Shown here: in pieces, positions 3,149-61,362 of the stretch
Numbering within the stretch: the stretch's first letter is position 1
How the letters are laid out: each line of letters opens with the position of its first letter
The notes under the pieces: generated by a model
The model's database searches: none
What the model saw: only the letters and a program-made list of their open reading frames with translations
What the model was told of the DNA's origin: nothing
Origin: Amia ocellicauda
Lineage: Eukaryota
Length of the DNA stretch: 64,000 nucleotides
Direction of reading: 5' to 3'
NCBI RefSeq assembly: GCF_036373705.1
Contig: NC_089855.1
Span: 18,149,962 to 18,213,961 of the forward strand
Position numbers and translations under genes: made by a program

Positions 3149-4403
3149 CAGGTGCCAAATTAAAGGAATAACCTGAATAAATGAGTGGAGGAACATAATG
3201 AATGCAGATGCCTCCAAACAGGTGTACTGCATGATATAATTAAGAATTAACATCCTATCATGCTCTGTGGCATGTATAAAAATGCTGAGCAGGCCCAGTT
3301 GACCTCGATTTTGGATAAAGATTACTTTGAAAGAGGGGTCATTATTGGGGAACAAATGGTAGGAGCTTCAGTCACAAAGACACTCAACTGGTTAGTGTTT
3401 CATTAGGAACAGTGACTAAAGTTATCTGCATTTAGATCTATGGGAAAGACATCAGTCAATAGGGTTTGAAATTGTGGTCGAAAGCACACTTTTGATGACT
3501 GTGATGCTTGTGGGGGGGGGGGTTGGTGTGCCGTGGAGTTTTCTCCCGTGACAGCGGGGGGGGGCTATGGACCGAGGGAGGGGGATTGGGGGGAGTTCCC
3601 ATTTGGGGGCCCCCCTCAGCCCGGGGCCCCAGGCAATTGCCTAGGATGCCTACCCCCTTGCGACACCCCTGCTCCCAGGTAACTGAGAATGTCAATGCAG
3701 GACATGATAAGACTGTCAGCAATAAACCCCTCATTACAAAGACAAAAGCAATCTGAGAGTTCAGTGCTGCAAAAACCATAGGCACTGGTCTACAGAGATG
3801 TGCAAAAAGTGATATGGTCAGATGAGTCATCCTTCACCATATTCTCGACAATTGGGTGAGTGCATGTGTGGTGACACCAAGAGAACGGTACAGGCCTGAC
3901 TGCTTGACCCCTACAGTGAGAGGGTCCGGAGGCTCTATTATGCTGTGGGGGGCATTTTCCTGGCATGGTTTGGGTCCACTTATCCTCATTATCATTACAC
4001 TTATTCTGAGTGATCACCTTTATCCTATGGTGAAACATTTCTGTCCTGATGGGAGTGGTCTCTTCCAGGATGACAATGCCCCCATCCACAGGGCACAAGG
4101 GGGTCACTGAATTGTTTGTTGAGTATGAAAATTATGTGAATCATATGCTATGGCCTTCGCAGTCACCAGATCACAACCCAATTGAACACCTATGGGAGAT
4201 TTTGGACCGACGTGGTAGACAGCGCTCTCCACCACCATCATCAAAACCCCAAATGAGGGAATATCTTTTGGAAGAATGGTGTTCATCCCTCCAGTAGAGT
4301 TCAGAGACTCGTAGAATCTGTGCCAAGGTGCATCAAAGCTGTTCTGGTGCTCCACACCTTATGGAGATGCTTTATGTTGGCTTTTCCTTTAATTTGTCAC
4401 CTG
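3149..4403 (+). mobile_element. Second Tc1-family transposon, a different subfamily, with a frameshifted or degenerate transposase.
   Basis: The TIRs are CAGGTGCCAAATTAAAGGAA at 3149 and its reverse complement CCTTTAATTTGTCACCTG ending at 4403. The N-terminal HTH-like translation at 3290-3490 reads ...FERGVIIGEQMVGASVTKT...TVTKV. The C-terminal DDE region at 3830-4300 reads VWSDESSFTIF...VKHGGGSIMLWGAFSWHGLGPL...FQDDNAPIHRA...[21 protein letters not shown]. Confidence 0.8.
3490..3700. repeat. G-run and C-run low-complexity block inside the second Tc1 copy.
   Basis: It contains many homopolymeric G8-10 and C6-7 tracts (ggggggggggttgg..., cgggggggggct..., gggggcccccct...). It replaces the middle of the transposase ORF. 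Confidence 0.6.
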
Positions 4404-12029: not shown

Positions 12030-13440
12030 CAGTGGCTATGGGAAGTATTCACCACCCTTGGACTTCACATGTTGTTCATGGGTTCTGATGTACAAAACTT
12101 ATTCCACACTTTTAATGTGGGGGAAAAATTGGGGGGGGGGTGAAAAAACAAATCAATTTTAAAACAAATCTGAGAGGTCTTCATTAGAGAAGTATTCACT
12201 CCCTTTGTTATGAGATTCCTAAATAAACTCAGGTGCAACCTATTGCCTTCAGAATTCACACAATAAGCTTAAAGGAGTCCATCTGTGTACAATAAAAGTG
12301 GTTCACATGATTTCAGATTAAATACACAGGTCTCTGTCACGTCACACATTTGGATAGTATTATCTTTGCTTTGAATGCACTATGAAGATCAAGAGGCTTT
12401 CAAAACAGCTCCAGGTTAAAGTTGTGGAAAGGTACAGGTCAGAGAAGAGATATAAAAAGATTAGTGAATATCCTTTGGAGCACAGTCAAGTTGATCATTA
12501 AGTGGAAAGTATACAGCACCACCCAGAATCTGTTTAGAGCAGGCTGTCCTCCCAACCTGAGCAGCCTGGTAAGAAGGACATTGGTCAGAGAAGCCACCAA
12601 GAGGCCACTGACAACTCTGAAAAACCTACAGCATTCCATGGTTGAGATGGAAGTTGTCAACAATAGCACAGGTACTCTATAGATCTGGCCTTTATGTAAG
12701 AGTGGTAAGAAGGAAACCGTTTCTGAAAAATCCGATGTAAAATCTTGCTATGAATTTGCAAAAAGACATTGGAATAATTTGGCCTAACTGCAAAGCATTA
12801 TGTCTGGTGCAAACCCAACACAGCACCTCCCCCAGATGACACCATCCCTACTGTGAAGCATGGTAGTGGCAGCATCATCATGCTATAGTAATGTTTGCAT
12901 TGGCAGGGTCTGGGAAGCCTGGTAGGGTAGATGGCAAAATGAATGGAGCTATATACAGTCAAAGCCTTGAGGAAAACCTGCAAACGACCCAAGACTGTGA
13001 TGGAGATTCACCTTTCAGCAGGACAATGACTCCATGCAGACAGCCAAGGCAACACTGGAGTGGCTTAAAAACAATAAAGTGAGTGTCCTGGAGTGGCCCA
13101 GTCAAAGCCCAGACTTTAATCTGATTGACAATCTGTTGGAAAACTTGGAAGTTTGCGGTCTACCAATGATCCCCTTGACAGAACTTGAAAAAAGTTGACA
13201 AGAAGAATGGGCGAATGATGCACAATCCAGATGTGCAAACCTGGTAGAGACTCACAGCTGTAACTGTTGTCAAAGGTGGTTCTACCAAGTATTGACTCAG
13301 GCAGGTGAATACTTATCTAACCAAGACCAGAATAATATAAAATGGTAAATGCTGTTAGAATAAATACTCCACCATGTTTTGAACATAGAAAATAACTGAG
13401 GAATTAATATCAATTTTCAAGGTGAATTACAGTGGTAAAC
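12030..13440 (+). mobile_element. Sleeping-Beauty-like Tc1 transposon carrying a pseudogene. The 3' end is degenerate.
   Basis: The 5' TIR is TACAGTGGCTATGGGAAGTATTCACCACC at 12028. ORF 12422..12682 translates to VERYRSEKRYKKISEYPLEHSQVD/...KWKVYSTTQNLFRAGCPPNLSSLVRRTLVREATKRPLTTLKNLQ (the SB N-terminus). Downstream fragments read [12 protein letters not shown].., FQQDNDSMQTAKATLEWLKNNKVSVLEWPSQSPDFNLI and the C-terminal VVKGGSTKY*. A GGTGAATACTT TIR core follows at about 13311. Confidence 0.75.
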
Positions 13441-37459: not shown

Positions 37460-39701
37460 GTTGGACTTATTTTTCATTATATGTACAAGACTAAAAGCCA
37501 GTATTCACACAGAACTCAAGAGTATAGTTCAAAGGTACATACCATTTCATTCAATAAGAAAGTTTTGAAAATGTATAAAATCTTTTGGGACAATATAAGT
37601 TGCTTAATGTTATAACACAGAAAAAGACCAAACTAAGCTTAAAGTTTAGAGTAAGATCCTAAAACAGATTATTTAATATAAGCAGGTTCCAATGGAAAGT
37701 TCTCGTAATTAGAAATACGGACGACTTATTTTAAAGCACAACTTTTAAAAATATTTTGTATTGCTGGGTTTAAAAACAGTGTTTGATTTGTAACTAATCC
37801 ATTTGGAGAACTTACTCTAAAAACAATGCAACTTAAGTAACTAGGAATATTCATATTTAGCCTTAATAAACTTATTTTATGCACCCAGTTTAAAAGTGGA
37901 TCACTTTTTTAATGCATAATGTTTTAGTGTTACTATGGATACAGATATTTTAATTAGATTAAAATGTTCTGATTTATATCAGTATACTGTGAATACAGAT
38001 GACTGGCATCTGCCATTTTAAACTAAGATTAGCTTGTAGAAAATACGATAACTTCTGTAATATTGACCAATGTCTGTCAGATACACGATCAAATGCAGAT
38101 ACTAGTGTAAAAAAAATGTATATTATATATATATATATAGTAGGGGAACATGAAATTCTACATGCAGGTTAATCGCAGGCATTTAGACATCAGCAACTGT
38201 GCATGCATTTGTATGCATGATTCAACATAAAATACTGGTTAATCTCTATCAAGTATTTCATTGAGTGTTTAATACATCGGCAGTATAGTATGTAATCCAC
38301 ATTTTCCAAATGATGCGATGTAAAAATAACAATGCACTTTACATACATTAATAAATGTTCAAATAATCTAATTTTAAAGACTAATATAATTTACAACCTC
38401 AGAAAACATACATGGACCTACAGCAGCAGAGAGTATTGAAATGAGCTTTGACAGAGCATTCAGGTTCAACTGGATTCAATATTTAATCTTATGCCAAAAT
38501 GTAAAAGCCTGTATATTTTGTGCTGCTTCTATCCTGACAGCGGTGACCAGGTGTACAGCTCAACACTGCCAAAATGTTACTGAGCCAGCTGCCATATCTC
38601 TGCTTTATCTGGACTGTTTACGTCATGCCGTTTCTCTTCTTGACAATTGTAAACACAAATCCTTAAGAATAACATATACCGTTCCCCTCACACCATAGCT
38701 ATCTTTACAACTAGCTGACCAGGACGTTTTTCTTTGTCAATGTGTATGGACAAAAATCCTTAACTTGTCGGTCTTCCACACGTAATTATTTTTAAGAGGC
38801 TGCAAAATGCATCTGCAATTTTACATAAGCCACTCATCTATAGAAAGAGCGTTTTCCTTTCAATGGTTTCAATGAACTAAATCCACTTTGATTCTACTTA
38901 TATTAAAGGACAGATGGGGTTAATCTGTTTCCCCAACTTAAATGTAACCCATACCTCTATAAAATCAATATATAAACCCTGAATATGTATTTGTATTGAA
39001 GAAATTCACTCACATGAAACCACACACATTAGAAATCAATGAATAAATCTGCAAGCAATGTGAAGCTTCATGTATGAGAAACTAACAACCATACAAATCC
39101 AAACGCATGGTGTATTATCTAATGTATGTGTATTTATTTATTTTTGTCGTGTGTGTTCAAATCGGTTTTATTTGTATGAATCTTGTGATTACATTTGGGC
39201 AATTGGGACCGCTTTATTACCGTTATCGTAAATGTAACTATAGTCGTGTGCCGACCGTTCAGAAATGAACATGTTTTGGGGGTGAGAACAGAAGGCGCGA
39301 CGCTCCTCGGCAGTACAAATAACACTACAGTGGCATTAAAAAAGGGATGGCTCGTTTCATTTGCCGAAATTATGCAGCATGTTGCTTGTCAAGTATTTTC
39401 ACTGCTAATAGTACGTGACTTGCACAATTCAATACATTGTTTTTTCTAGACTTAAACTAAGATGAACCACCTCAGGATGTTGCGAATAACCAGCCTCTCT
39501 GCCTGCGTAATAACGCAATTAGTGCTACTGAAAACGCAATACATTAAACAGCATCCCAAACCGTGCATATTTTCAAATCAACTTTCTTAATGTTTATTTA
39601 CACACAGCGTGCAAACCTTTACGTTTCTCTTTATAGGTTACAAAAGCTATACAATAAGTATCTGTGCAATCTTGCGCAAACGCTGCGGGGGAGAAACTCA
39701 C

Positions 39702-40049
39702 CAGTCGGATGAAACCGAAGCCCCTGTCTCTGTTAATAAACACTTCGTTGGCTTCGCCATATTTTGAAAAAAGCTTTTTAAAATCCTCCTCGGTGAGGTC
39801 GGTGGGCAGGTTCCCTACAAAGAGCCTGCAGCGCTGGGTAAAAGTCTTTTCCCCGGGCTTCCTGAAGTTTTTCAAATCCAGGGTCATCTCCATCGGCTCC
39901 CCGGCGCCAGGCTCAACCTCCGGCGCCATCATCCCCTCGACGCTCGGCCCCGGCTCGGCTGGCGACTCGGAATCGCGCTTCGAGTTCTTCGTGCCAGGCG
40001 AGAGAGAGCTGTTTTGAATTTTCACCTGCTTTAAATTCCGGTTTGCCAT
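39702..40049 (-). CDS. PSPC1: PSPC1 coding exon 1. The ATG is at 40049-40047; the 5'UTR continues above 40050. The exon encodes [10 protein letters not shown]...[10 protein letters not shown] (116 aa, RRM1) and ends at a GTGAGT donor.
   Basis: The ORF track gives 39594..40049(-). The peptide matches the DBHS-family N-terminal and RRM1 region ([24 protein letters not shown]). On the minus strand, ...ttc atc cga ctg|gtgagt fixes the donor. Phase is 0. Confidence 0.88.
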
Positions 40050-47644: not shown

Positions 47645-48581
47645 GTGGTTACCTAAGTAATGGACCAAGGTTTTTCCAATGGTTTGGAGCCCAAGCTCGG
47701 TGCAGAAGAAAGCAACACGGCAGCAGAGGAGGAGTCTGCCATGGACACGGGAGTCCCAGAAGTTGAGACGGTTGCAGCGGTCCAGGACACCACGTCAGCC
47801 CCTGACGATCTCCAGCACACCTCGAAGGTGGCAGAGGAAGATGACGATGACGTAGTGTTCATAGAGCCACTTCCTTCAGCACAAGAGGAGAGCACGCCGA
47901 CCCTGGTTCCCAGCACTGGCACCGCTGCCGAAGCCCCCGTTTCCCAGACTCCAGACCGTGCCGAGGAGACTGCTACAGTGCCTCAGCACTCGCAGGATTA
48001 CACGCCTCCTCCGCCTCCCATGACTTTGGCCAACAGTCACGGCGAGACCATCGTTATAGATGATGAGGAAGATGCTGAGCTGACGTCTTTGCAGCAGCCC
48101 ACCTCATCCTCTGTCACTGGAACCAGGGCTGGTCAGGAGTCCAATGCTGCTGCGAGTTCTGCTGAGGCTACAGAGGCGATGGAGAGCCAGGTGGTGGCAG
48201 CTGTGCAGACTCCACTGAGCAGCACGGAGCCAGACTCTGAAATCCAGATCGCCAGCGTGACAACGCTTGACCTGGGGGCTAGCCTTGGCAGTGGTGGCCA
48301 GGGAGCCTCTGTACCTGGTGCCCGGGTCGATGGGGACATGAATCTGATGATAACCAGTGTCACCTCTCTGCACAACAGCAGCCTGGCGGAGGTAGGCAAT
48401 GGGTTGCAGATAAGCAACACCTTCAGCCTCAACCCAGATGCACAGAGTGCTCCCACAGCCTCACACACTGACTCCAGCAGGCCTGTGGGCCATTCCAGCA
48501 CGGGGACTTTCAATCCAGGAAGAGTCGGCACAGCCAGGGAGGCTGCTCAGAATGGGGAAACGGGGACCCACCAGAGACCTG
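47645..48581 (+). CDS. ZMYM2: ZMYM2 first coding exon. The ATG is at 47660. It encodes MDQGFSNGLEPK...DDDDVVFIEP...ETIVIDDEED...TEPDSEIQIASVTTLD...DMNLMITSVTSL...GTFNPGRVG...THQRP(D).
   Basis: ORF 47660..48607 supports it. The acceptor is ttttctcag|g. The donor is cct g|gtaatt. Several blocks match the human ZMYM2 (ZNF198) N-terminal region: DDDDVVFIEP, ETIVIDDEED, TEPDSEIQIA.VTTL and DMNLMIT.VTSL. Confidence 0.88.
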
Positions 48582-49216
48582 GTAATTCACCACTCTACAT
48601 TTTTTAATTGGTCATGAGCGCCTGCTTGTATTGAGTCACCTTGGGTCCTTGAGGAGAATTAGCCCTTGATCTCCTGCTCTATAGCCCTGCAGCATGGCAC
48701 AGCCTGCTGAGTAGGTGCTACAGCCTTAACTGGTTAAATGGGATCTTGCCTTTGTGGGTATCCTGTTGCCAAACAAGGAAATTTGTTTTACCTACAATGG
48801 GAAAATAGAGAGGTTTTGTTTCTTCCTCGAACTTGAACATGTATCCATAAATCTGTGTTATACAGATGTTTATTTATTACATTGTCAATGAAAGATTTAT
48901 AATTCCCAGTGATCAGTGATCTGCTTAACCCATCTATGCATTGAATACAAAAAGATTAGTTAATAACTTTTTTCCAAACTGTATTGCTTCACCTGCAGAC
49001 TTGCTTCTGTGCTTTTAAACCAGCTTCCAAATCCCATTTAAAAAAAAAAAAAAAAAGTGTGCCAAAGGTTTTATCACTAGCATACTGAAGAATATTATTG
49101 AATATAAGGAGCTGAACAATTGAAGTCTGCAGTCTTGATTTAATTTGTGTACATCCCAGTAAAGGCTCTTTGCTTTATTAGAGGTCTTTGTAATGTGAAC
49201 TTCTATTTATTAACAG

Positions 49217-49502
49217 ATTCGTGGATATCCCAGTCAGCCTCTTTCCCCCGAAATCAAAAGCAGCCAGGTGTTGATTCTCCATCTTCTGCGGCTTCCTTGC
49301 CAAAATCTGTCTTTCCGCCTCCAGCCTCTCAGCAGCCCTCTAAGCCGGTCAAAGTCACCTGTGCGAACTGTAAAAAGCCGCTGAGGAAAGGGCAGACGGC
49401 ATACCAGCGCAAAGGCTCGGCCCATCTCTTCTGCTCGACCACCTGCCTGTCAGCCTTCTCCCACAAGCCTGCCCCCAAGAAGAACTGCACAATGTGCACA
49501 AA
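49217..49502 (+). CDS. ZMYM2: ZMYM2 exon. It encodes (D)[20 protein letters not shown]...[53 protein letters not shown](K), which is MYM zinc finger 1.
   Basis: ORF 49147..49506 supports it. The acceptor is ttaacag|at. The donor is aca aa|gtaagg. It is near-identical to human ZMYM2. Confidence 0.92.
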
Positions 49503-49960
49503 GTAAGGTTCAGAGCGAATGCCAACTAGTCAGTCACAGAATAGTATGTCTTGTGTGTGCAGGCAAAGGGGAGGGAAGGTAAGTTGTGTTTGGGGGAACT
49601 TGCACTACTGGCAAAGGTTTTAATATTAAAATGATTATTACTGATTATCTTAATCTATTACTGTGAATTTAGAAAATCTATTTTTGTCGCATTACTAACT
49701 GGGTCTTTGTAGATATTTTCAAATTTAATGAACTTCAAAAAAATCTCTTTCCCTTAATCACAGCAGGGCAGCAACCATAAGCTTGAATAAATTATTATAT
49801 ATGGGAGCTTATTCTTTGCAAACTTTGTAGAATCTTCAAATTGTAATTTTGAGTCACAGCAAGGAATGATCTGTAATCTGTTCACAGTAGTGCAATCAAT
49901 AATTTAGCAAGGACTACCTAGTAAGTATAGAATCCAAATTACAAAAGATGCTCCTATACG

Positions 49961-50855
49961 TACACTGATCAGGCATAACATTATGACCCCTGACAGGTGA
50001 AATGAATAACACTGGTACTCTCATTATCATGGCACCTGTCAGTGGGTCGGATCTATTAGGCAGCAAAGTTGTCCTCAAAGTTGATGTGTTAGAAGCAGGA
50101 AAAATGGGCAAGCTTAAGGATCTGAGCGACTTTGACAAGGGCCAAATTGTGATGGCTAGACGACTGGGTCAGAGCATCTCCAAAACTGCAGCTCTTGTGG
50201 GGTGTTCCCAGTCTGCAGTGGTCAGTACCTATCAAAAGTGGTCCAAGGAAGGAAAAGCGGTGAACCACCGACAGGATCATGGGCAGCCAAGGCTCATTGA
50301 TGCACGTGGGGAGCGAAGGCTGGCCCGTGTGGTCCGATCCAACAGACGAGCTACTGTAGCTCAAATTGCTGAAAAAGTGAATGCTGGTTCTGATAGAAAG
50401 GTGTCAGAACACACAGTGCATCGCAGTTTGTTGCGTATGGGGCTGCGTAGCCGCAGACCAGTCAGGGTGCCCATGCTGACCCCTGTCCACTGCTGAAAGC
50501 GCCTACAATGGGCACGTGAGCATCAGAACTGGACCACGGAGCAATGGAAGAAGGTGGCCTGGTCTGATGAATGACGAGTTCAAGGTGTTGACTTGGCCTC
50601 CAAATTCCCCAGATCTCAATCCAGTCGAACATATGTGGGATGTGCTGGACAAACAAGTTCGATCCATGGAGGCCCCACCTCGCAACTTACAGGACTTAAA
50701 GGATCTGCTGCGAACGTCTTGGTGCCGGATACCACAGCACACCTTCAGAGGTCTAGTGGAGTCCATGCCTCAACGGGTCAGGGCTGTTTAGGCGGCAAAA
50801 GGGGGACCGACACAATATTAGGCAGGTGGTCATAATGTTATGGCTGATCGGTGTA
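49961..50855 (+). mobile_element. Internally deleted Tc1 element (non-autonomous derivative, copy 1) in a ZMYM2 intron.
   Basis: The TIRs are TACACTGATCAGGCATAACATTATGACC and GGTCATAATGTTATGGCTGATCGGTGTA. It sits at a TA target site. ORFs 50002..50496 and 50516..50791 encode the transposase N-terminus ([34 protein letters not shown]...RVPMLTPVH) and C-terminus (VLTWPPNSPDLNPVEHMWDVLDKQVRSMEAPPRNLQDLKDLL..SWCRIPQHTFRGLVESMPQRVRAV). They are joined at ...KKVAWSDE|RVQGVDL-VLTWPP, so the DDE catalytic core is missing. Confidence 0.85.
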
Positions 50856-51536
50856 TATTAATGTAAAATAAATTACTTTTAAAGTCTGAAAACTTTTCTG
50901 ATATTATTTTAAGTGGAAGCTGTAGACCTCTTGTGGTTATGCCATGTTACTGCAAATGCACATTGTTCACACCCATTCAAAATGTATGAAAAGGTCAGAG
51001 TCCACACTCTTATCTAGGTTGACCATGATGCCCTGTAACCATCTCACTGAAAAAATAATCTTTATGATGGTACTGAAGTTGGAGACATTTAAGTGTTCCT
51101 TTTGCACAGTATCCAAGCTTGGGTTCCTGAAGTGAATTCGTATATAGATTTGTTTAATTTGAAATTGCAAGGAAAATCAAACGAAACAAATTTGTGTACA
51201 AGTTGAATCCAGCATTGAAATTGTGCACTTCAGATTAGTGCTGTTGTACAGTTTTTTTTTTTTTTTTCTGGTAGGTAACTGTAGAGAGAGATTTACCAAC
51301 TGAGTAAACGATTTGACCAGTCTTCTGAACAACCAAGAATCTGAGAAATATTTTCATATGATAGTGTAGTATACAAATATTAGGTATTAAACCATCCTCT
51401 AATGACTTCAGTAAAGTAAAATGCATAGTGATTTTATCAAGGTTTACTTTTTCGCATTTGTTCAGAGAGCTTTTGCATGCTGAAATGTGTATGCAAATTT
51501 CCTGATTATATATATTTTTTTTCTTCTTCATTTTAG

Positions 51537-51699
51537 GGACATTACTACCATGAAAGGAACCATTGTTGCTCAAGTGGACTCCAGCGAGTCCTTCCAGGAG
51601 TTCTGCAGCACTGCTTGTCTGTCCTCATATGAAAATAAACAGAATCCTCCCAAAACCCCCATCAAGACCAGGTGCACGGTCTGTGGGAAACTAACTGAG
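51537..51699 (+). CDS. ZMYM2: ZMYM2 exon. It encodes (K)DITTMKGTIVAQVDSSESFQEFCSTACLSSYENKQNPPKTPIKTRCTVCGKLTE.
   Basis: ORF 51487..51711 supports it. The acceptor is cattttag|g. The donor is gag|gtaaaa. It matches the human ZMYM2 MYM finger. Confidence 0.92.
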
Positions 51700-51976
51700 G
51701 TAAAATCCTGAAGAGAAAACATTACTAAATTACCTTTGTAATGTTTTAATATGGAAGGTATTATACTCATTTTCCTCATAGTGATAGACCCACTAGAAGC
51801 CATGCATTTGCTATTGTAAATTAAATCTGATGATAATTATAGATAATCTAATGTTTTTAATCAATTATATACTATATGATATAATACACTGGATGTGTAG
51901 TTTTCAGTGTTAATGATATAAGTTCTATACAGTTTCTTTAAAATTAGCTTTCTGAGACCTGAACATTACATGTTTG

Positions 51977-51998: not shown

Positions 51999-52048
51999 CC
52001 CTGGATCAGGTTTGAGTGAAGTCATTGTATCTGTTTCTTTAATTGCAG

Positions 52049-52261
52049 ATTCGCCATGAGGTTAGCTTTAAAAACGTCACCCATAAGATATGCAGTGATC
52101 ACTGCTTTAACCGGTATAGAATGGCCAATGGTCTCATTATGAACTGTTGTGAACAGTGTGGAGATTATTTGCCTAATAAATCGTCTGCAAATCATTTCCT
52201 TATAATTGATGGACAGCAGAAACGGTTCTGCTGCCAGAACTGTGTTAAGGAATACAAGCAG
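52049..52261 (+). CDS. ZMYM2: ZMYM2 exon. It encodes [71 protein letters not shown].
   Basis: ORF 52043..52297 supports it. The acceptor is attgcag|att. The donor is aag cag|gtaaga. Confidence 0.92.
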
Positions 52262-53009
52262 GTAAGAATGGGTTTTAAACTAGGACATTTTATTTAAAAC
52301 ACAAAAATGTTTTATACTACAGTTCACCAAGTAGGAGAAATATGCTATGACTCTTCATATACCATGAAGGTACGATGCTTATTAATGTGGAATCCAATGC
52401 CTTCTACAGTGCAAACTGCAGATCAGAGTTCTACTAGCTGGCAATTGTATAGCCAGTGCAAGTGTTTGTTTAAAAAAAAAAAAAAAAAAATGTATTCAGG
52501 TTCAGTGGAAGAAGTGTGATTAGATTTATATTATATATGTTTTGCTATATTTCTGCCTTGTACAATGCCATGCTTTCCACTTTCCATTTCCACTTATTCC
52601 TGTACTGTGTCATCTACACTGGGCAACCCCCAGGTGATGCATTGTACTATGATTTGCTCTGGAGTGCCATTCTTGCTAGGCCACTGTCTATGGCTGCTTG
52701 CATATATATATGCAGAAGGAAAGTCATTAATTATCTTAAGCAGCATGAATTAAATTGATTATCCTTGTTTGAGGACGCCATCATACTTGCATGGTTATAA
52801 TTTATCAAATGAAGGCTACCACAATTGAGCTAAGCAAACCCTGAACATGAGAAACCCAAATTCAGAATTGAAATCAAAACGGAAATTGAAATCTCGAAAG
52901 AGACAATGTACAAAAAGTCAGTCCTTGTAGAAAACTGCAGTTAGAAGAAATTGTTACAATTTTTTTTGCATTCTAAATTAAATTGACATTTTCCTATGTA
53001 CAATTTTAG

Positions 53010-57861: not shown

Positions 57862-59251
57862 GTATGCCTTGCCTACAGACAGGACTGGTGTCTGCTTTGC
57901 TAACAGTTGCGCACCAGCAATTTTACTGTACCTCCTTGTCAATTCCGGTTATAACCACATTTGCGATTTCAATAGTAATTTGGTGTTTGTGGTCAGCCCT
58001 CAGGCAGACCTCGGAGCGCCTTCTCTGCATAGCCCAAATGAGTGACTGTTATATAAACATGGAAATTGTGACACACAATCCAAATAAGTTTTAATTTTGA
58101 CTTTTGAGATGTATTTTTCAAATCCCATGTTGAGATCTGTGTTTTTTGTTTTTTGTTTTTTGTTTTAGCTGGAGACTCCAGGCTGCCTGTATGGTTCAAT
58201 AACATAAATAGAAATTATACACACACACCCCTGCTTCTCCAAGATAAAACCGCATCGGATTGCATCAGTCGATCTGAACTGATTTTGTGTAAACTGTACA
58301 TTACTGTTAGGAACTACCATATAAGTTAATATTGATGCATGACGCATTTTCACAAACCTTCGTAGCTTTTCACCTTTTTCAGAGGAGAAATGTTTGCAGA
58401 TAACTGCAGAAAATAAAATTTCAGTGTTCAGTGATCATGGATGCTTTCTGCAAATGCTTAATTCAACACTGGCTAACCTTGATTATATGCTGCTATGGTT
58501 GATCCAGACATTTGTATCGGATTTAAAAAATGCTAACTAGTATAACACAAAACCGAATAACTAGTGCATAGGGCTGTGCAATATGATGTATATCGTGTGA
58601 CGATAGAAAAATGTCTATCGTTTCATATTATTTTTCGTCATTTGGACAACACTTTGCATTCTTCCCGGTTCTTCCTTACATGCCGGATTGCAGGCAAGAA
58701 ATGTGCATTCAGAAACGCAAACAAACATGGAGGAGAGTGAACTTGACACAGAATAACCAAAAGATACTTTAATTCACAAGCGCACACGTTCCGCCTCACT
58801 CTCATTGCCAAGCTAAACTCGATCTGCAATCACCCCCGACAATACGCAATCACACCCCCCACCCCCACTAATTTAGATGTATATAATTAGTATGAAATTA
58901 AAGAACAATAAAGTTTGGTTGCATTTGAATACATTGGAAAGCAATGCAAACAGATACAGAAAGTTTCATTTTCTTTTTATTAAGATGTTGAATAACAGTT
59001 TTTATTATTATTATAACTATTTTGTATTAACACGTGCTGTACTGGTAAGCAGAATTGAAATGCGACAGTCAGAGAAGAAATGTACTTGTCTAGCAGGTGT
59101 TAAATGCGCCACTATAAACCCAGCTGTGGTAAATCTACCTGAATCTATACTATTTTACAGCGCATGTGTTGTGTGATTACCATTACTTGTTGTTGTTATC
59201 TGACCGTAAATCATACTGTGTGTGTATGTATGTATGTGTGTGTATATAATA

Positions 59252-60142
59252 TATATACCGATCAGCCATAACATTATGACCACTGACAGGTAAGTGAATA
59301 ACACTAATACTCTCATTATCATGGCACATGTCAGTGGGTGGGATCTATTTAGGCAGCAAGTGAACATTTTGTCCTCAAAGTTGATGTGTTAGAAGCAGGA
59401 GAAATGGGCAAGCGTAAGGATCTGAGCGACTTTGACAAGGGCCAAATTGTGATGGGTAGATGACTGGGTCAGAGCATCTCCAAAACTGCAGCTCTTGTGG
59501 GGTGTTCCTGGTTTGCAGTGGTCAGTACCTATCAAAAGTGGTCCAAGGAAGGAAAAGCGGTGAACCGCCGACAGGGTCATGGGCGGCCAAGGCTCATTGA
59601 TGCACGTGGGCTGGCCTGTGTGGTCCAATCCAACAGACGAGCTACTGCTCAAATTGCTGAAAAAGTGAATGCTGGTTCTGATAGAAAGGTGTCAGAACAC
59701 ACAGTGCATCGCAGTTTGTTGCGTATGGGGCTGCGTAGCCGCAGACCAGTCAGGGTGCCCATGCTGACCCCTGTCCACTGCTGAAAGCGCCTACAATGGG
59801 CACGTGAGCATCAGAATTGGACCACGGAGCAATGGAAGAAGGTGGCCTGGTCTGATGAATCACGAGTTCAAGGTATTGACTTGGCCTCCAAATTCCCCAG
59901 ATCTCAATCCAGTCGAGCATCTGTGGGATGTGCTGGACAAACAAGTCCGATCCATGGAGGCCTCACCTCGCAACTTACAGGACTTAAAGGATCTGCTGCT
60001 AACGTCTTGGTGCCAGATACCACAGCACACCTTCAGAGGTCTAGTGGAGTCCATGCCTCAACGGGTTAGGGCTGTTTAGGCAGCAAAAGGGGACCTACAC
60101 AATATTAGGCAGGTGGTCATAATGTTATGGCTGATCGGTGTA
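59252..60142 (+). mobile_element. Second copy of the same internally deleted Tc1 derivative (copy 2). It shares the deletion junction and carries an extra small deletion.
   Basis: The TIRs are TATACCGATCAGCCATAACATTATGACC and ...GGTCATAATGTTATGGCTGATCGGTGTA. ORFs 59497..59784 and 59804..60079 are about 95% identical to copy 1. They share the same junction WSDESRVQGIDL..VLTWPPNSPDLNPVEH. There is an additional in-frame loss at DARG|LACVVQ relative to copy 1 ([14 protein letters not shown]). Confidence 0.85.
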
Positions 60143-60144
60143 TA

Positions 60145-61362
60145 TACACTCACCTAACGGATTATTAGGAACACCTGTTCAATTTCTCATTAATGCAATT
60201 ATCTAATCAACCAATCACATGGCAGTTGCTTCAATGCATTTAAGGGTGTGGTCCTGGTCAAGACAATCTCCTGAACTCCAAACTGAATGTCTGAATGGGA
60301 AAGAAAGGTGATTTAAGCAATTTTGAGCGTGGCATGGTTGTTGGTGCCAGACGGGCCGGTCTGAGTATTTCACAATCTGCTCAGTTACTGGGATTTTCAC
60401 GGACAACCATTTCTAGGGTTTACAAAGAATGGTGTGAAAAGGGAAAAACATCCAGTATGCGGCAGTCCTGTGGGCGAAAATGCCTTGTTGATGCTAGAGG
60501 TCAGAGGAGAATGGGCCGACTGATTCAAGCTGATAGAAGAGCAACTTTGACTGCTCGTTACAACCGAGGTATGCAGCAAAGCATTTGTGAAGCCACAACA
60601 CATACAACCTTGAGGCGGATGGGCTACAACAGCAGAGGATCCCACCGGGTACCACTCATCTCCACTACAAATAGGAAAAAGAGGCTACAATTTGCACAAG
60701 CTCACCAAAATTGTACAGTTGAAGACTGGAAAAATGTTGCCTGGTCTGATGAGTCTCGATTTCTGTTGAGACATTCAGATGGTAGTCAGAATTTGGCGTA
60801 AACAGAATGAGAACATGGATCCATCATGCCTTGTTACCACTGTGCAGGCTGGTGGTGGTGGTGTAATGGTGTGGGGGATGTTTTCTTGGCACACTTTAGG
60901 CCCCTTAGTGCCAATTGGGCATCGTTTAAATGCCACGGCCTACCTGAGCATTGTTTCTGACCATGTCCATCCCTTTATGACCACCATGTACCCATCCTCT
61001 GATGGCTACTTCCAGCAGGATAATGCACCATGTCACAAAGGTCCAATCATTTCAAATTGGTTTCTTGAACATGACAATGAGTTCACTGTACTAAACTGGC
61101 CCCCACAGTCACCAGATCTCAACCCAATAGAGCATCTTTGGGATGTGGTGGAACGGGGGCTTCGTGCCCTGGATGTTCATCCCACAAATCTCCATCAACT
61201 GCAAGATGCTATCCTATCAATATGGGCCAACATTTCTAAAGAATGCTTTCAGCACCTTGTTGAATCAATGCTACGTAGAATTAAGGCAGTTCTGAAGGCG
61301 AAAGGGGGTCAAACACAGTATTAGTATGGTGTTCCTAATAATCCTTTAGGTGAGTGTGTGTA
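60145..61362 (+). mobile_element. Near-intact Tc1 transposon of a distinct subfamily. Its transposase gene is complete except for one frameshift.
   Basis: The TIRs are TACACTCACCTAACGGATTATTAGGAACAC at 60145 and GTGTTCCTAATAATCCTTTAGGTGAGTGTGTA at 61329-61362. ORF 60295..60801 encodes MGKKGDLSNFERGMVVGARRAGLSISQSAQLLGFSRTTISRVYKEWCEKGKTSS...WSDESRFLLRHSDG. ORF 60779..61324 encodes RIWRKQNENMDPSCLVTTVQAGGGGVMVWGMFSWHTLGPL...FQQDNAPCHKG...WPPQSPDLNPIEHLWDVVER...KAKGGQTQY*. The two ORFs differ by -1 frame at about 60783 (GGTAG-TCAGA). Confidence 0.85.

Follow-up and report, generated by a model that had tools for sequence, protein, structure and literature searches.

A defective full-length transposon assigned to DD36E/Incomer, next to an Incomer-type deletion derivative in a TG/TA microsatellite

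Closest described systems and family assignment

The DD36E/Incomer transposons described by Sang et al. (2019, Mobile DNA, PMC6875036) are about 1.2 kb long and encode a transposase of about 346 amino acids. Their terminal inverted repeats (TIRs) measure 22–32 bp and have CACTC ends, and the target site is a duplicated TA. They are found mainly in ray-finned fish and frogs (154 species are listed), with evidence of horizontal transfer. For Esox lucius (5418 copies, of which 266 are intact), Paramormyrops kingsleyae (547 copies, of which 224 are intact) and Xenopus tropicalis, Table S1 of the same paper (PMC6875036) gives elements of 1225 bp that end in CACTC and have TA on either side; intact Xenopus copies are also listed. 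Deletion derivatives and MITEs derived from Incomer were described in bats (PMC6875036).

The element studied here lies in a 64-kb stretch of DNA (the window, in which all positions below are counted). It belongs to the same superfamily as Sleeping Beauty and the DD34E Tc1 elements and shares with them a paired-type bipartite helix-turn-helix, a DDE domain, a TA target and short TIRs. Two features set it apart. The second catalytic D and the E are separated by 34 residues in Sleeping Beauty and Tc1, whereas 36 residues lie between D243 and E280 of the restored protein, as in all aligned relatives. Its TIRs are simple repeats of 29 bp, whereas the inverted repeats of Sleeping Beauty are long (about 230 bp) and contain internal direct repeats. 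Among solved structures, the closest is the catalytic domain of Sleeping Beauty SB100X (5CR4), which matches residues 119–346 of the Cyprinus carpio transposase P0001 with E=1.5e-44.

P0001, a protein of 346 amino acids, is the best protein match of the window element, at 96% identity. Proteins from Leuciscus, Polypterus, Cirrhinus and Xenopus fall into the 90% identity cluster of P0001, and proteins from Paramormyrops, Esox, Neogobius and Dallia into sister clusters. At the DNA level, the initial 399 bp of the element, counted with the TA, show 98.7% identity to the Incomer consensus published for X. tropicalis and 82.8% to that of Rhinella marina. In the DDE domain, 149/153 residues match the published Esox Incomer sequence. 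The 36-residue spacing together with the match to published Incomer sequences argues for DD36E/Incomer and against DD34E Tc1. We assign the element to this family on its spacing, its architecture and its near-identity to published sequences. Given this near-identity, a phylogeny would be very unlikely to place it outside the Incomer clade. An earlier note on this DNA had called the element Tc1, which is right for a Tc1/mariner-type element with a Tc1-type frame, but does not apply in the strict DD34E sense.

The restored element agrees with the Incomer lineage of Esox, Paramormyrops, Cyprinus and Xenopus in several features. It is 1225 bp long with both TA duplications, as are the published elements. 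It has a transposase of 346 residues with the 36-residue spacing and 29-bp TIRs starting with CACTC, and the TA duplication is seen in sister copies. The window copy differs in being defective: it has a 2-bp frameshift, a 9-bp deletion, 11 amino-acid replacements, a TIR mismatch and a 3′ TG. The features are collected in Table 1.

Table 1. Positions of the element, its parts, its neighbours and nearby exons in the window
Feature	Position	Strand	Basis
Incomer transposon copy, full-length but defective	60147..61356	+	Ends by alignment to L001, L002, L003, L004, L008
5′ TA target-site duplication	60145..60146	.	TA directly outside CACTCACC in other copies
5′ TIR, 29 bp, CACTCACCTAACGGATTATTAGGAACACC	60147..60175	+	Alignment and repeat/pattern search
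Transposase frame, part 1 (frame 1): ATG, both helix-turn-helix motifs, first catalytic D	60295..60783	+	ORFs, Pfam
9-bp in-frame deletion junction, AAATAACCA lost	60553..60554	+	Alignment to copies/consensus
2-bp deletion junction (AGAG to AG), codon R167 (consensus numbering) of DGRVRIW	60784..60785	+	Alignment to relatives
Transposase frame, part 2 (frame 2): remaining DDE domain	60785..61324	+	ORFs, translation
3′ TIR, 29 bp, identical to family consensus CACTCACCTAAAGGATTATTAGGAACACC	61328..61356	-	Alignment and repeat/pattern search
3′ target-site duplication position, reads TG, not TA	61357..61358	.	Alignment to sister copies
TATATA spacer: copy 2 TA duplication, one TA, Incomer TA duplication	60141..60146	.	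Sequence reading
Copy 2, 885-bp internally deleted derivative, second Incomer-type lineage	59256..60140	+	TIR pattern, alignment
Copy 1, 891-bp internally deleted element, TA on both sides	49963-50853		TIR pattern, alignment
ZMYM2-like gene exons	47660-48583, 49216-49503, 51535-51705, 52046-52264	+	tblastn
First exon, presumably PSPC1-like	39594-40049	-	

Ends, reading frame and lesions of the Incomer copy

Independent copies were collected from ENA and metagenome contigs, L001–L003 by exact protein look-ups and L004, L008, L009 and L010 by a metagenome scan. Where their ends are complete (L001, L002, L003 and one end each of L004 and L008), TA is followed directly by CACTCACC at the 5′ side and GGTGAGTG is followed directly by TA at the 3′ side. 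Because the independent copies end at CACTCACC and GGTGAGTG, the window element was placed at 60147–61356, and not at 60145–61362 as had been proposed. It is 1210 bp long. Restoring the 9-bp and 2-bp deletions brings it to 1221 bp, and the two TA duplications to 1225 bp.

The TIR arms are 29 bp each with one mismatch between them, at position 12 of the 5′ arm (60158), which is C in the window and A in the family consensus. They had been described as matching 30-bp repeats; the arm drawn to 61362 runs into the TG/TA-rich flank. A 35-nt inverted repeat (60141–60175 and 61328–61362) was considered as the true TIR and rejected, as the sister copies end at CACTCACC and GGTGAGTG. Its extra bases are TA/TG-rich flank that matches by composition. 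The 29-bp pattern CACTCACCTAAMGGATTATTAGGAACACC has exactly two matches in the window, the two arms listed in Table 1, and none in 100 shuffles of the sequence, which bears out the presence of a TIR-bearing transposon. A search of the window by TIR pattern, blastn and tblastn gave no further copies of this lineage.

The canonical TA/TA signature is incomplete in the window copy, whereas L001, L002 and L003 have TA on both sides. The TG at the 3′ duplication presumably arose by a later A-to-G change or by microsatellite drift.

Two overlapping ORFs on the plus strand, 60295–60801 (168 amino acids) and 60779–61324 (181 amino acids), together make up a Tc1-type transposase. The frame from MGKKGDLSNFERG to KAKGGQTQY and the stop codon was thus found as first described, split across two frames near 60783. 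Read through, frame 1 ends at a stop at 60799–60801, which gives the 168-residue ORF. The ATG is intact, as are the stop codon TAG (61322–61324) and the three catalytic codons, D at 60748–60750, D at 61019–61021 and E at 61130–61132. In the restored protein Pfam finds HTH_23 (residues 11–47), HTH_Tnp_Tc3_2 (residues 71–139) and DDE_3 (E=1.1e-12), all above the curated cut-offs.

The shift from frame 1 to frame 2 requires either a loss of 2 bp or a gain of 1 bp. The relatives read GGT AGA GTC AGA at this site and the window reads GGT AG- -TC AGA. A 1-bp insertion was rejected as the cause, as all relatives encode DGRVRIW and have AGAGTC where the window has AGTC. The lesion is a 2-bp deletion and not the single 1-bp frameshift reported before. 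The loss of one AG from AGAG looks like slippage.

This is the only break of the frame, as had been stated, but it is not the only damage. The 9-bp deletion removes T86-E87-I88 and turns T90 into A within HTH_Tnp_Tc3_2, the second helix-turn-helix. Compared with the consensus protein, there are 11 amino-acid replacements and 14 residue-level differences. Besides the T90 change, the replacements are R106H, R118G, P119S, R138Q, W143C, A253G, R254P, K271N, E292G and P330L. W143, A253 and P330 are invariant among eight aligned relatives. W143C falls in HQNWT and P330L in ESMPRR; A253G and R254P stand beside the catalytic DNAPCHKA motif. The coding changes relative to the consensus comprise 3 synonymous and 12 nonsynonymous nucleotide changes, the latter in 11 codons. 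Read from these counts, their mostly nonsynonymous nature suggests free, unconstrained decay. With no uninterrupted ORF, the two deletions and replacements at several otherwise invariant positions, the copy is not autonomous.

The window copy differs from a leave-one-out consensus by 22 substitutions in 1196 compared sites (1.8%), an approximate figure with a consensus from only seven copies on metagenome and ENA contigs. As we read the alignment, some 15 of the substitutions (~1.2%) are private to the window copy. The other sampled copies lie 1.1–2.2% from the consensus, and the suggestion that the element may be young is reasonable by this comparison. The consensus protein has 346 amino acids and equals P0001 except at residue 12. 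P0001 is an intact paralogue of the lineage, one residue from the consensus; P0123, P0124, P0131 and P0135, likewise intact and 346 amino acids long, are 2–3 residues from it. Together with Table S1 of Sang et al. (PMC6875036), these sequences show that intact paralogues of the lineage exist in public data. An exact look-up of the DNA for P0001 and for two window ORFs returned none on record.

The consensus was built without L009 and the 3′ part of L010, as these proved to be mosaics with another Incomer subfamily. In L009 (1–1418), a Rhinella-type 5′ end (CACTCACCGGCCACTTTATTAGG) is followed by a central region that is almost identical to the window lineage. Both L009 and L010 (the latter from about position 830) switch to the other subfamily after the catalytic E. 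These mosaics are either recombinant elements or chimeric assemblies. Fragments of Incomer-type transposases were also seen under bacterial names, P0107 on an 874-bp contig of Vibrio parahaemolyticus and P0212 on a 665-bp contig of Klebsiella pneumoniae. They probably represent contamination of bacterial assemblies with fish DNA.

Neighbouring derivatives, target tract and host genes

Two internally deleted elements, copies 1 and 2, accompany the Incomer copy in the window, and copy 2 is its direct neighbour. They are delimited by the four occurrences of the TIR CCGATCAGCCATAACATTATGACCAC. Copy 2 is flanked by TA at 59254–59255 and 60141–60142 and carries a C-to-T change at its first base. The two copies are 93.8% identical and lack the same internal segment, which begins directly behind WSDES and stops directly ahead of EFKVLTWPP. 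The common breakpoint indicates that both derive from one deleted progenitor, amplified in trans as non-autonomous derivatives. Their divergence, about 2% per copy, is similar to that of the Incomer copy from its consensus (1.2–1.8%). A full-length element of low divergence stands beside an internally deleted one, as had been noticed.

The deletion in copies 1 and 2 takes away the region from the first D to the residues just before the E, and the catalytic spacing of their lineage is seen only in relatives. Among full-length proteins, the nearest to these copies are transposases of fish (Dicentrarchus and others), at 87–91% identity over the retained parts. Full-length relatives found with these parts (P0163, P0164, P0166) have 346 amino acids and the 36-residue spacing, and they align with P0001 without gaps at 49–53% identity. 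From the same length, the gapless alignment and the same spacing, we conclude that the two neighbours are distinct lineages of what is probably one DD36E-type group. They are not two unrelated Tc1 subfamilies, as the earlier note had it.

The TIR of copies 1 and 2 matches that of the bat/Nanorana Incomer at 22/29 positions. Like the Incomer derivatives and MITEs of bats, these copies are internally deleted and non-autonomous, with a length of about 890 bp; they differ from them in host and in the deletion itself. Compared with the TIR of the window Incomer copy, 20/32 aligned positions are identical, and the DNA-binding regions of the two lineages are about 47% identical. Because both TIRs and DNA-binding domains diverge, cross-mobilisation between the lineages appears unlikely. 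The proposal that an active source of the Incomer lineage would also mobilise the derivatives nearby is disfavoured on the same sequence comparison.

The adjacency of the two elements is borne out by the sequence, but the spacing is 6 bp (TATATA, with copy 2 ending at 60140) and not the 2 bp reported earlier. The outer flanks of the pair read ...GTGTGTGTATATAATATA and TGTGTATATATATACAC... Excising the pair, with one TA kept for each element, leaves an empty site that reads as an unbroken TG/TA microsatellite. The window contains 5002 TA dinucleotides and only 20 (TA)n tracts of at least 8 bp, two of which flank the pair; the longest of the 20 is a perfect 36-bp tract at 1060–1095. If all TA sites were used equally, the chance that two insertions fall within 6 bp of each other would be ~0.1% per pair by our own rough estimate. 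The flanks of the other sampled Incomer copies are also TA-rich. Sleeping Beauty prefers ATATATAT as its target (PMC8934666), which fits an Incomer insertion in a TA-repeat context. We attribute the adjacency of the two elements to such a preference for TA tracts.

The surroundings contain exons of a ZMYM2-like gene, with further candidate exon ORFs beyond those mapped. Its MYM zinc-finger exon (49216–49503) is 82–85% identical to bird and mammal ZMYM2. The intron between 49503 and 51535 of this gene contains copy 1. The pair at 59256–61356 lies downstream of the mapped exons and is probably intronic in sense orientation. The minus-strand first exon in Table 1 is one that we take to be PSPC1-like. 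The N-terminal ZMYM2-like exon (47660–48604) has no database match above 45% identity. Its best match is a contig labelled Acipenser sinensis (sturgeon) and flagged UNVERIFIED_CONTAM; the sole teleost match, from trout, reaches about 31–38% and is no closer than mammals. The proteome of the host seems to be absent from the database searched, and the host may be a non-teleost. Older, fragmentary remnants of Tc1-like transposases were found by tblastn at 1323–1760, 3619–4349 and 13013–13292, with 25–46% amino-acid identity to Incomer proteins.

Origin of the locus and its meaning

We are highly confident that 60147–61356 is a dead full-length copy of DD36E/Incomer, from the young fish-and-frog lineage known in Esox, Paramormyrops, Cyprinus and Xenopus. 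The element would have inserted by cut-and-paste at a TA within a TG/TA microsatellite, duplicating the TA. It would then have decayed without selection, through the 2-bp slippage deletion, the 9-bp deletion and the 11 replacements. The same decay would account for the TIR mismatch and the change from TA to TG at the 3′ duplication. Such a copy is predicted to be unable to encode an active transposase. Because the TIRs of the copy are nearly intact, an undamaged paralogue from its lineage might in principle still mobilise it in trans. Copy 2, of a different Incomer-type lineage, would have reached the same TA tract through an insertion of its own.

The single frame break, the intact ATG, stop codon and DDE triad, and the low overall divergence could also be taken to mean a near-intact Tc1 gene with one 1-bp frameshift only, a single mutation away from an active autonomous element. 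We regard this as highly unlikely. The break is a deletion of 2 bp, three residues are missing from the second helix-turn-helix, and the 11 replacements include W143C, P330L and A253G at invariant sites as well as R254P; the spacing is moreover that of DD36E and not the DD34E of Tc1. The 168-residue ORF, with the DNA-binding domain and the first D, might be expressed, either to regulate by binding TIRs or as a domesticated fragment. It keeps its ATG and both helix-turn-helix motifs by Pfam, and the element has the same orientation as the ZMYM2-like gene, whose mapped exons lie upstream, and is probably in an intron. To this we give almost no credence, as its DNA-binding region has lost three residues and carries R106H, R118G and P119S, and the 3 synonymous against 12 nonsynonymous changes read as neutral decay.

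The side-by-side arrangement could in turn have arisen as an artefact of assembly, if reads rich in repeats were wrongly joined at the TA microsatellite. Assemblers can make such joins at a junction like this one, a low-complexity TATATA between two members of repeat families. However, both ends are complete in each of the elements. Their outer flanks (59249–59256 and 61361–70) are halves of one TG/TA tract, and removal of both elements therefore gives a plausible empty site. The elements belong to different lineages with about 72–80% identity over short patches only, which leaves no long shared repeat to collapse on. A mis-join is highly unlikely, and we retain the independent insertion of two elements, of which the Incomer copy is dead.

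The window element is an ordinary transposon of an already described kind, and in that sense the finding is already known. "Young" is a fair word for this copy; "one lesion from active" is not, and the copy is no candidate source of active transposase. Annotators should mask the locus as two elements, a defective copy of DD36E/Incomer and, beside it, a deletion derivative of Incomer type; both appear to lie in introns of the ZMYM2-like gene. Beyond annotation the locus has little importance, other than as a further case of TA microsatellites in which Tc1/mariner elements accumulate. Over the stretch compared, the window copy shares about 98–99% identity with those of frogs and teleosts. The distant matches of the N-terminal ZMYM2-like exon leave room for a host from a lineage without an earlier record of this Incomer lineage. 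This is unlikely; if it were so, the copy would document one more recent horizontal transfer event. The locus fits the published view of a young Incomer lineage that spread through fish and frogs by horizontal transfer.
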